Program-made: the position numbers and the translations under genes
The notes under the pieces: generated by a model
Told to the model about the DNA's origin: nothing
Databases searched by the model: none
The model's input: only the letters and a program-made list of their open reading frames with translations
Virus record (IMG/VR): IMGVR_UViG_2917875804_000004
Location: 1-40,868 of that record
Origin: a virus
Lineage: Duplodnaviria; Heunggongvirae; Uroviricota; Caudoviricetes
Length of the DNA: 40,868 nucleotides
Strand: one strand, 5' to 3'
Part shown: piece after piece, positions 8,494-16,726 of the stretch
Layout: the number at the start of each line of letters is the position of its first letter
Numbering within the stretch: the first letter of the stretch is position 1

Positions 8494-9144
8494 TTATGGA
8501 AGGTTTGCTATTTTTGCATCGACAACTACACCGATGATTTTGCAGTTCCCGTTGATCTCAATCATCGGATATTGTGGGTTAAGTGGTTTTAGAAACCTCC
8601 TGCCAGCATCAATAACTAACTTCTTGAAAGTTGCCTCGTTTTCTCCTTCGAGCTTTGCCACTACCAGCTTCCCATTACGAGGTTCTACTTCAGGATCGAC
8701 GAGTATTATCATCCCTTCAGGGATGCTAAGACCGGCTGGAGCCGTCATCGAATCACCTTTTACGTCCAGCCAAAACGAATCTTCTGAACAATCTACGGTT
8801 GTATCGTACCAGTTATCTATTGCACGCTTATGATATGGCTCTACAGCTTCCATCCAACATCCTGCGCTTACCCAACTAATTAGAGGATACGAACCTCTTG
8901 GATCATGCCTGCTGTGATAGGCAATGTTTGAAAGACTATCTTCTCCTTTCAACAAGTAATCAGGGGAGCACTGCAAAGCCTTGGCTAAGGCCAATAGGTT
9001 TTCGCCATTGGGCTCAGTTTCAGAACGCTCCCATTGGGAAATAGCAACATTAGACACGCCAACCATCTTGCCAAGGGCAGCCTGCCTAATCTTGAGTTCT
9101 TTTCTGCGAGCGCGAATACGCTCACCCATCAGTTGTGTATTCAT
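8494..9144 (-). CDS. c2: Prophage repressor, P22 C2-type (HTH plus S24 LexA-like autopeptidase domain)
   Basis: 216-aa product nearly identical to remembered P22 C2. Confidence 0.9.
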   Translation of the reverse strand: MNTQLMGERIRARRKELKIRQAALGKMVGVSNVAISQWERSETEPNGENLLALAKALQCSPDYLLKGEDSLSNIAYHSRHDPRGSYPLISWVSAGCWMEAVEPYHKRAIDNWYDTTVDCSEDSFWLDVKGDSMTAPAGLSIPEGMIILVDPEVEPRNGKLVVAKLEGENEATFKKLVIDAGRRFLKPLNPQYPMIEINGNCKIIGVVVDAKIANLP

Positions 9145-9224
9145 AGTTAAGATATCTTAAATAAACTTGACTTAAGATTCCTTTGATAGATAATTTAAGT
9201 GTTCTTTAATTTCGGAGCGAGTCT
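9145..9224. promoter_or_regulatory. OR operator region with divergent PRM/PR; PR -35 TTGACT (9166-9171), -10 GATAAT (9189-9194)
   Basis: Operator-like half-site palindromes, e.g. AGTTAAGATATCTTAAAT and ATTTAAGTGTTCTTTAAT; canonical promoter hexamers with 17-bp spacing. Confidence 0.65.
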
Positions 9225-9410
9225 ATGTACAAGAAAGATGTTATCGACCACTTCGGAACCCAGCGTGCGGTAGCTAAAGCGTTAGGCATTAGCGATGCAG
9301 CAGTCTCTCAGTGGAAGGAAGTCATCCCAGAGAAAGACGCCTATCGACTGGAAGTCGTTACAGCTGGCGCCCTGAAGTATCAAGAAAGTGCTTATCGCAA
9401 AGCGGCATAA
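9225..9410 (+). CDS. cro: Cro repressor, P22-type
   Basis: 61-aa product matching remembered P22 Cro. Confidence 0.85.
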   Translation: MYKKDVIDHFGTQRAVAKALGISDAAVSQWKEVIPEKDAYRLEVVTAGALKYQESAYRKAA

Positions 9411-9417
9411 GCAAATT

Positions 9418-9460
9418 GCTCTTTAACAGTCATGGTCCTCATTCCCGCCGAAATGCGGGA
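9418..9460 (+). promoter_or_regulatory. nutR candidate: boxA GCTCTTTAACA plus boxB hairpin
   Basis: Identical boxA/boxB to the nutL candidate; located between cro and c1. Confidence 0.6.
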
Positions 9461-9518
9461 ATACAACGCGCATCAGTTGGTGCGTATAACTTCTTATTTG
9501 TTAAGGAAATACTTACAT

Positions 9519-9797
9519 ATGCAACTTACAAGTACTCGCAAGAAAGCGAATGCAATTACAAGCAACATCCTAAATCGAATTGCTGTACGTGGTCAGCGAA
9601 AGGTTGCTGATGCATTAGGGATTAATGAATCGCAAATTTCGCGATGGAAAGACAGCTTTATCCCAAAGATGGCCATGCTTCTGGCTGTGCTGGAGTGGGG
9701 TGTTGAAGACGAGGAATTAGCGGAGCTGGCAAAGAAAGTAGCCATGGTGCTGACAAAAGAAAAGCCTCAAGACTGCTGCAACAGTTTTGAGGCCTGA
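9519..9797 (+). CDS. c1: CII-like transcriptional activator (P22 C1)
   Basis: AAGGAAA SD; product from MQLTSTRKKANAITSN matches remembered P22 C1. Confidence 0.8.
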   Translation: MQLTSTRKKANAITSNILNRIAVRGQRKVADALGINESQISRWKDSFIPKMAMLLAVLEWGVEDEELAELAKKVAMVLTKEKPQDCCNSFEA

Positions 9798-9831
9798 TGT
9801 AGAAAGACTGGATCAATCCACAGGAGTAATT

Positions 9832-9993
9832 ATGACAAAACGTCGTAAGAAATACCAGGAAAAAGAAGAGATTCGACACTCTGATTCACCTGAGGGATTA
9901 GTGGTAGCCGCAGCAAATAACAGGGCGTTCGCAGAGCGCCTTGTTGGTGTTTACAGACTAGCCAAAGCAGGAGTGAAACATGGGCGTCGTTAA
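9832..9993 (+). CDS. Small hypothetical protein (53 aa)
   Basis: AGGAG SD 5 nt upstream of ATG at 9832; ends overlapping the initiator start. Confidence 0.45.
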   Translation: MTKRRKKYQEKEEIRHSDSPEGLVVAAANNRAFAERLVGVYRLAKAGVKHGRR

Positions 9994-10801
9994 GTTAGCT
10001 GATTACAGGCCTCAACTTGAGGTCGTGGAGCATCGCGTGGCAGATACCGAAGATGGTTTCATGCGCGTTGCTAACGAGATTACCGACAGTCTGCTGATGG
10101 CTGATTTAACCGTCCGGCAGTTGAAGGTGATGCTCGCTATCATGCGCAAGACATACGGATTCAATAAGCCGATGGATCGACTCACAAACACGCAGATAGC
10201 AGCCATGACAGGTATTCACCACACTCATGTTTGCGCTGCCAAGCGCCAGCTTATTGAGCGTAAATTCCTCATTGCTGATGGCGTGAAAATCGGAGTGAAC
10301 AAGGTGGTTTCGCAGTGGATTAGCCAGGACAGCTTAACATTAGCTAAAACAGCTAATAAAACATTAGCCGAGTCGGCTAATGGGTATAAGCCAAGTCAGC
10401 TAAACACAAAAGACAATATACAAAAGACAATAAATACAAATACCCCCTTACCCCCTAACGGGGGCGGCGATGGGCAGGTTAAACCTGAACGTCGCAAGGC
10501 AGAACGCATCGACTACGAATCCTTCCTGAACGCCTACAACACCGAAGTCGGTGACAGACTTCCACATGCTGTTGCGGTCAACGAGAAACGCAAACGTCGC
10601 TTGAAGAAAATCATTCCGCAACTGAAAACGCCAAACGTGGACGGTTTCAGAGCGTATGTCAGGGCGTTTGTGCATCAGGCCAAGCCGTTTTACTTCGGAG
10701 ACAACGACACGGGCTGGACGGCTGATTTTGATTACCTGTTGAGGGAAGATTCGTTAACGGGAGTACGGGAAGGGAAGTTTGCAGACAGGGGGATTGCATG
10801 A
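9980..10801 (+). CDS. Replication initiator, lambda O / P22 gene 18 analogue
   Basis: Position between cII-like gene and helicase; contains internal iteron/AT-rich ori-like segment. Confidence 0.75.
10320..10460 (+). promoter_or_regulatory. Putative replication origin inside the initiator gene
   Basis: Repeated ACATTAGC and AGCTAA motifs, direct repeat CAAAAGACAATA, AT-rich tract, then GC hairpin CCCCCTAACGGGGG. Confidence 0.45.
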
Positions 10802-12174
10802 GACAGGATATCGAAGCGAGCGTTATCGGTGGCCTGCTGATTGGTGGATTAACTCCAACCGCCAGCGACGTTCTGGCAACACTGGAGCCGGAAGCGTTTT
10901 CAATTCCGCTCTACAGAAAAGCCTTCGAGGTTATCCGCAAGCAGGCGAGAAACAGAAACCTAATCGACGCGCTGCTTGTTGCCGAGGAGTGCGGAGAGGA
11001 GCATTTCACGTCAATCCTGATGACCAGCAAAAACTGCCCGAGTGCCGCAAACCTGAAGGGATATGCCGGAATGGTCGCGGATAACTATCACCGCCGTCTG
11101 GTGCTGGAAATCATGGATGAAATGCGTGAACCAATTCGGAGCGGAACCATCGACGCATCGAGTCAGGCGATGGATGAGCTTGTAAAGCGTCTCTCAGCCA
11201 TCAGAAAGCCCCGTGACGAGGTTAAACCGGTGCGGTTAGGGGAAATCATCACTGACTACACTGACACGCTTGACAGGCGTCTGAGGAACGGAGAAGAGTC
11301 AGATACCCTGAAGACCGGAATCGAAGAACTTGACGCCATCACCGGAGGGATGAACGCGGAAGACCTGGTGATTATCGCCGCTCGTCCTGGTATGGGGAAA
11401 ACCGAACTGGCGCTGAAGATTGCCGAAGGCGTTGCAAGCCGCGTTATTCCTGGTTCTGACGTTCGGCGCGGAGTATTGATTTTCTCGATGGAAATGAGCG
11501 CATTGCAGATTGCAGAGCGAAGCATTGCCAACGCCGGGAGGATGTCGGTTAGCGTGCTGCGAAATCCTGCTTCGATGGATGACGAAGGCTGGGCGCGCGT
11601 TGCTAACGGCATGAGTCAGCTTGCAGATTTGGATGTATGGGTAGTCGATGCCTCGCGGTTATCGGTCGAAGAAATACGCTCAATCGCAGAACGGCACAAA
11701 CAGGAAAATCCAAACCTGTCACTCATCATGGTGGATTATCTTGGCCTGATTGAGAAGCCGAAAGCAGATCGCAACGACCTCGCAATTGCTCACATCTCCG
11801 GAAGCCTGAAGGCGATGGCGAAAGACCTGAAAACGCCAGTTATCTCCCTAAGTCAGCTTTCGCGCGATGTTGAGAAGCGACCAAACAAACGCCCGACAAA
11901 CGCAGATTTGCGTGATTCAGGAAGCATTGAACAGGACGCAGACTCAATCATCATGCTCTATCGGGAAGCGGTATATGACGAGAACAGTAGCGCCGCGCCA
12001 TTTGCTGAAATCATTGTGACGAAAAACCGTTTTGGCTCGCTTGGTACGGTTTACCAGCGGTTCTGCAACGGACACTTTGTTGCATGTGACCAGGATGAAG
12101 CCAGACAGATTTGCACAGCATCAAATGCACCTGCTGCGCGTGGCAGACGATATGCACAAGGGGCTGACGTATGA
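10798..12174 (+). CDS. DnaB-family replicative helicase (P22 gene 12-like)
   Basis: 458-aa product with Walker A GMGKT and DnaB-like C-terminal domain; ATGA overlap with the initiator stop. Confidence 0.9.
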
Positions 12175-16570: not shown

Positions 16571-16645
16571 GGGTCAGTCGTATAAAGGTCATTACGGAAG
16601 GCTGTTAACCTTCTTATCGTGGTTCGAGTCCACGCTGTCCCGCCA
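16571..16645 (+). tRNA. tRNA, anticodon GUU (Asn) by manual cloverleaf; one mismatch each in acceptor and D stems
   Basis: Hand-folded: perfect T arm CGTGG-TTCGAGT-CCACG, anticodon arm GAAGG-CTGTTAA-CCTTC, encoded CCA. Confidence 0.55.
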
Positions 16646-16650
16646 AACAT

Positions 16651-16726
16651 GCTGGTTTAGCTCTAATGGTAGAGCAGTCGCCTTGTAAGCGAATGGGTAG
16701 CGGTTCAAGTCCGTTAACCAGCACCA
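16651..16726 (+). tRNA. tRNA, anticodon UGU (Thr) by manual cloverleaf
   Basis: Hand-folded 76-nt cloverleaf: acceptor GCTGGTT/AACCAGC, D stem GCTC/GAGC, T loop TTCAAGT, encoded CCA. Confidence 0.65.

Follow-up and report, generated by a model that had tools for sequence, protein, structure and literature searches.

Replication genes of the locus

The window, by which we mean the whole 40,868-nt stretch of DNA analysed here, is by its gene content and sequence a mosaic lambdoid (pro)phage, with lambda-like head genes lying apart from the replication region that is the subject of this report. The genes and signals of that region are as follows.

8494-9144, minus strand: cI-type repressor (HTH_3 and Peptidase_S24)
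9167-9194, plus strand: putative pR-like promoter 5' of cro, TTGACT-16-GATAAT (consensus scan, 10/12 hexamer matches)
9225-9410: P22_Cro-family gene
within 9432-9797: cII gene (Phage_CII)
9980-10801, plus strand: initiator gene of the lambda O / P22 gene 18 family, 273 aa (Pfam PF04492 Phage_rep_O, E 5.8e-33)
10798-12174, plus strand: DnaB-type replicative helicase of the P22 gene 12 type (Pfam DnaB_C, E 8e-79; DnaB N-terminal domain, E 3e-13)

The pR-like sequence sits between the cI-like repressor and the P22_Cro-family gene and, if it acts as a promoter, rightward transcription from it would cross cro, cII, the initiator gene and the origin described below. From N to C terminus, the initiator comprises a Phage_rep_O DNA-binding domain (aa 19-113), a linker whose codons are those of the origin itself, and a P22-type C-terminal domain, and its stop codon is overlapped by the start of the helicase gene (10798-10801). 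An O-like initiator, a P22-type C-domain and an overlapping DnaB-type helicase gene together make up a module of the P22 gene 18 / gene 12 kind, and the two reading frames are intact, their products being 98% and 89% identical, respectively, to counterparts in viable phages. A small ORF (9787-9993, plus strand) overlaps the initiator gene start, in the position held by HK97 gp53, P22 orf48 and Nil2 ORF53. Elsewhere, in the phage late-regulatory region, two adjoining tRNA genes occupy 16571-16726 on the plus strand, one for tRNA-Asn (GTT) and one for tRNA-Thr (TGT); phage Thr(UGU) tRNAs, that of HK446 included, are reported to counter the P2 OLD tRNase (preprint 10.64898/2026.07.10.737580). An Rfam search of the whole window returned two tRNAs only, with no RNA family at the origin and no oop-like match at gathering score.

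Four dyad iterons inside the initiator gene

The original prediction had placed an iteron-bearing, AT-rich, origin-like segment at 10320-10460 within the initiator gene, and all the motifs that it listed are indeed there. The gene is of the Phage_rep_O family (E 6e-33, rounded) and the repeats follow directly upon the DNA-binding domain, which ends at aa 113 or nt 10318, the first of them (10320) falling at nt 341 of the gene. Four repeats of 17/18 nt start at 10320, 10340, 10364 and 10387, that is, at start-to-start distances of 20, 24 and 23 nt, and each encloses the dyad TTAGCY-N5-RGCTAA. They are followed rightward by three further elements.

10320-10336: iteron 1, TTAGCCAGGACAGCTTA, an imperfect dyad
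10340-10356: iteron 2, TTAGCTAAAACAGCTAA, a perfect 6+6 dyad with an AAAAC centre as in the lambda iterons
10364-10380: iteron 3, TTAGCCGAGTCGGCTAA, a perfect 10+10 palindrome reaching 10362-10382
10387-10403: iteron 4, TAAGCCAAGTCAGCTAA
10404-10442: AT-rich tract, presumed unwinding element, ACACAAAAGACAATATACAAAAGACAATAAATACAAATA, 39 nt, 79% A+T
10441-10464: GC element, composed of the direct repeat TACCCCCT in two copies (10441-10456) and the hairpin CCCCC-TAAC-GGGGG (10451-10464)
10467-10495: imperfect 14+14 palindrome, GCGATGGGCAGGTT/AACCTGAACGTCGC, in the place that an inverted repeat takes in lambda, rightward of the AT-rich tract

Two motifs listed in the original prediction, ACATTAGC (10337 and 10361, its sole two copies in the window) and AGCTAA (10342, 10351 and 10398), are present and repeated as predicted, but they are parts of the 17-nt palindromic iterons rather than independent units. 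The palindrome of iteron 3 is perfect because its centre has a G where that of HK97 has an A (GAGTC here, AAGTC in HK97), the one base by which the two differ in that centre. On the minus strand, a T-run follows this palindrome (10362-10382) and yields a terminator-like score, at chance level.

Could these motifs be no more than a chance cluster in an A-rich stretch? AGCTAA-like hexamers are common enough in the window, with 10 copies of AGCTAA on the plus strand and 8 on the minus strand, but a search for TTAGCY-N5-RGCTAA with at most two mismatches had 12 matches over the window where 2.74 were expected, and no shuffle out of 100 gave as many. Eight of the 12 are the four iterons counted on both strands; the same search found no site with one mismatch or fewer elsewhere in the window and no second iteron cluster. 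Since the iteron pattern had been taken from the data, a pattern-free scan was added, in which 17-mers were sought that matched three or more others within 100 nt at 70% identity or better, and clusters of such positions were counted (a single-position version was weak, a count of 3 being reached in 16% of shuffles, and the cluster statistic was used in its stead). Over the 40.9 kb, clusters appeared at two places only, the iteron segment, with 16 positions, and a coding tandem repeat at 38.7-39.1 kb, whereas the largest cluster in 200 block shuffles had 4. Moreover, the identical arrangement is kept in phages of other genera (see below), and the likelihood of a chance cluster is accordingly negligible. 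Repeat finding, the check that the original prediction had itself named, thus puts the motifs well beyond chance.

The second cluster belongs to a tandem repeat at 38748-39175 with a 189-nt period, 2.3 copies and 82% matches, in which 21/42-nt periods rich in GCNAAA are nested; it probably lies inside a tail-fibre-type gene.

Constraint on the DNA rather than the protein

Because the segment encodes the linker between two protein domains, and its translation is mildly repetitive, the DNA repeats might alternatively be the by-product of a repetitive, low-complexity peptide, with no function of their own as DNA. The frames speak against this: the four iterons stand in codon phases 1, 0, 0 and 2, so that all three reading frames are used, and a period of 14 nt, that of the tandem repeat in the AT-rich tract (see below), cannot stay in frame; neither can be read as peptide repeats. 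A peptide origin likewise fails to explain why each repeat should hold a DNA palindrome.

Codon alignments with diverged relatives that share the same half-sites, Yersinia phage 21.09 and Cronobacter phiES15, bear on the same point. Identity at third codon positions was 0.72 in the iteron segment against 0.36 in the N-domain for the former (Fisher p 6e-4), and 0.66 against 0.30 for the latter (Fisher p 9e-4), while codon positions 1 and 2 had similar identity in the two regions; only in the iteron segment, then, are third positions conserved equally to positions 1 and 2. Such raised third-position conservation shows selection on the nucleotide sequence, and the constraint in the iteron segment is on DNA and not on protein, which leaves the peptide by-product highly improbable.

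AT-rich tract, GC element and right-hand palindrome

Iteron 4 is followed at once, as in origins of the ori-lambda type, by a strand-asymmetric AT-rich tract of about 40 bp, whose plus strand has 26 A, 5 T, 6 C and 2 G. A 14-nt tandem repeat, ACAAAAGACAATAT/A, fills 10406-10433 of it, and the direct repeat CAAAAGACAATA, which the original prediction had noted here, occurs at 10407 and 10421 and nowhere else in the window. By predicted stability, the tract (about 10402-10442) belongs to the least stable 0.25% of all 40-nt stretches in the window (z 3.05); in A+T content, several intergenic stretches in the window exceed it.

The GC hairpin that had been predicted after the AT-rich tract exists, at 10451-10464, with CCCCCTAACGGGGG beginning at 10451, and the GC element is kept in P22 and Kapi1. 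When folded alone, however, the C5-TAAC-G5 hairpin does not rise above chance (z 0.02, with 92/200 shuffles folding equally well); it is the statistically weakest element of the segment and, being no better than shuffles, is not counted as independent evidence. Folded together, the hairpin and the palindrome at 10467-10495 gave a z of -2.55, and this palindrome presumably also has a part in the origin.

Comparison with the lambda and P22 origins

In lambda and P22, the iterons lie inside O and gene 18, respectively (PMC8022706, PMC7466680), and lambda O binds four of them in the middle of gene O, after which the AT-rich tract follows (PMC7466680, PMC3349717). The present segment has the same layout: it lies between the N- and C-terminal domains of an O-family initiator gene, just past the DNA-binding domain, and presents four dyad iterons of about 18 nt, about two helical turns apart. 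The lambda record has 'ori iteron 1-4' at 39034, 39054, 39078 and 39101, a 20/24/23 spacing identical to that of the window, with the first iteron at nt 349 of O as compared with nt 341 of the initiator gene here. As in lambda, an A-rich AT tract comes directly after the iterons and has the same ACACAAAAGACA motif at its start; the lambda tract, ACACAAAAGACACTATTACAAAAGAAAAAAG, which opens ACACAAAAGACAC, resembles that of the window. To the right, in the place of the lambda inverted repeat (positions 563-590 of locus L005), stands a candidate inverted repeat of another sequence, weaker than its lambda counterpart. The two differ further in the half-site, TTAGCY here and TCCCTC in lambda, in the initiator, which is 41% identical to lambda O over the N-terminal part only, its C-terminal domain being unrelated, and in the partner gene, which encodes a phage DnaB-type helicase rather than lambda P.

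The rep_origin of P22 is annotated at 32840-32984 of OQ031658.1, nt 353-497 of gene 18, with the note 'bi-directional replication origin similar to phage lambda', which is to say that it was annotated by similarity. The AT-rich tract of the window, 14-nt tandem repeat included, is found base for base inside this annotated rep_origin, and the C5/G5 element differs by a single base. P22 also has four repeats with the 20/24/23 spacing of the window, but with half-sites that read TTTACC-N5-GGTAAA. Its gp18 is 51% identical overall to the initiator, 40% in the N-domain and 59% in the C-terminal domain, and its protein 12 (gp12) is 89% identical to the helicase over 397 aa. In BLAST, P22-type phages match only from 10396 rightward (93.5%), and the mosaic joint between the HK97-type left half (N-domain and iterons) and the part shared with P22 lies at 10396-10404 (from position 1201 of the P22 locus, L002, onward), where iteron 4 ends and the AT-rich tract starts. 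The comparison with both origins that the original prediction had called for therefore comes out in its favour, the spacing being identical to both and the AT-rich tract identical to that of P22, and so does the position and architecture that it had expected, the lambda order of four dyad iterons, AT-rich tract and putative inverted repeat.

The HK97/ST104 class and its wider relatives

The origin itself is shared widely. In BLAST, 10300-10480 with its four iterons is 97.8-100% identical in nucleotides to HK97, ST104, HK446, Nil2 and many Stx and Salmonella phages; identity of the origin segment reaches 100% with Salmonella phage BIS08P22 and stands at 98.9% with HK97, and its near-identity to HK97 gp54 and ST104 gene 18, 98.9-99.4% over 10300-10480, places it in the HK97/ST104 specificity class. 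ST104 and HK97, whose replication proteins are 98% identical, form one origin-recognition type (PMC2629481). The whole initiator gene is 98% identical in nucleotides to the HK446 O gene and ST104 gene 18, and HK97 O (gp54) is the same 273-aa protein with few differences, its four sites lying at identical spacing; the surrounding phage genome, by contrast, with the lambda-like head genes of the window, differs from those of HK97, ST104 and Nil2. None of the HK97-type records examined has an annotated origin, and the literature surveyed yielded no experiment on an HK97-type origin or on the present sequence.

Farther afield, Yersinia 21.09 has four TTAGCC-N5-AGCTAA sites spaced 20/24/23, and Erwinia 49 and Salmonella SEN34 carry a degenerate variant of three TTAGC-type sites with 1-3 mismatches (spacing 24/23 in Erwinia 49). 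Cronobacter phiES15 (positions 602-722 of locus L006) has five TTAGCC-N5-RGCTAA iterons at 20/24/36/24; the fourth and fifth have the same sequence, a sign that an iteron may have been duplicated recently, with a longer protein linker as the result. Relatives whose N-domain is of another kind carry other half-sites at the corresponding position: for Klebsiella GZ7 and E. coli 1W these read TTACCY (in full, TTACCY-N5-AGGTAA), for P22 TTTACC and for lambda TCCCTC. The N-terminal half of the 'replication protein O' of the Escherichia phage Kapi1 gives no alignment to the O family, and its locus (L012, 552-683 and 700-770) has 12-nt CCGCACA(T/A) repeats followed by the C5/G5 element and C-domain of the window; on sequence, it looks as if another initiator head had been set on the tail found in the window.

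Lambdoid O proteins have long been known to swap domains. Across 11 phages, the type of N-domain co-varied with the type of half-site, whereas the C-domain and the next gene did not, the latter encoding, among the phages compared, a DnaB-type helicase, a lambda P-like protein or a DnaC/DnaI-like loader. Beside the TTAGC-type cassette of N-domain and iterons, the window, Yersinia 21.09 and Erwinia 49 have a DnaB-type helicase, and phiES15 and SEN34 have a lambda P-like protein; in the related TTACC class, the partner is a DnaC/DnaI-like loader in GZ7 and a P-like protein in 1W. These alignments show the mosaic of two domains that is classical for lambdoid initiators.

One may go further, tentatively, and suppose that the O-family origin is built of three exchangeable cassettes and that the N-domain carries a recognition code for the half-sites, a proposal that we regard as possible but on balance doubtful. 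The cassettes may be the N-domain with the iterons, the AT-rich tract, and the GC element with the C-domain and helicase or loader, and the nearly universal ACAAAAGACA-type tract may serve as the homologous joint for their swaps. A PDB sequence search with the initiator found no solved relative, so it is from sequence, and from 11 sequences, that we infer the recognition helix; the code, read in a short stretch of the N-domain that co-varies with the half-site, could pair TGIHHTHVC with TTAGC, TGMAPTKCS or TGILPHKCS with TTACC, and TKLPVKRCN with TCCCTC. Compatible with both ideas are the occurrence of the TTAGC class with four different partner types and the position of the window/P22 joint, exactly at the end of iteron 4.

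A probable lambdoid theta-replication origin

Taken together, the segment is very probably, on comparative sequence grounds, the theta-replication origin of a lambdoid (pro)phage, with the architecture of ori-lambda and the specificity of the HK97/ST104 class, situated in the linker-coding part of the initiator gene. By analogy with lambda, binding, unwinding, helicase recruitment and initiation would all take place at this site. Indirect support for iteron binding by the initiator and for a replication start here comes from the co-variation of N-domain and half-site over the 11 phages and from the DNA-level constraint. Dimers of the O-like initiator would bind the four TTAGCY-N5-RGCTAA iterons through their N-terminal Phage_rep_O domain; since a spacing of 20-24 bp amounts to about two helical turns, these dimers would come to lie on one face of the DNA, which is proposed to be wrapped into an O-some. 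Strain from the O-some would then open the adjoining 39-nt AT-rich, strand-asymmetric tract, with the probable help of pR-like transcription through the origin, and the P22-type C-terminal domain would recruit the DnaB-type helicase that the phage itself encodes in the adjoining gene and that would stand in for lambda P and host DnaB together. Host primase and polymerase would then begin replication.

A different role for the same sites deserves to be weighed, namely that they bind the initiator but mainly for another end, initiation occurring elsewhere, or that they survive as a relic within a prophage that is defective. The sites might titrate or handcuff the initiator, in line with the finding that lambda iterons on a plasmid inhibit lambda replication (PMC3349717), or might terminate antisense transcripts by means of a palindrome and minus-strand T-run; iterons 2-3 hold two terminator-like matches on the minus strand. 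These two matches compare with 2.2 expected in shuffles, however, and are found because the palindrome adjoins A-runs; terminators inside the iterons were rejected on this account, the scan matches being at chance expectation and arising from the palindromes. Against a relic or an origin elsewhere stand the intact initiator and helicase frames, as close as they are to those of viable phages, and the want of a second iteron cluster in the window, and we hold a main role other than initiation to be improbable.

The reading as a replication origin brings no new biology, since lambdoid origins of this architecture are textbook matter and phages with this sequence have been sequenced before. Its value is one of annotation: it marks the probable replication origin of this phage and the origin-specificity class to which the phage would belong, and it points to a replication module of the P22 type, one that encodes its own helicase and would be independent of a lambda P-type loader.
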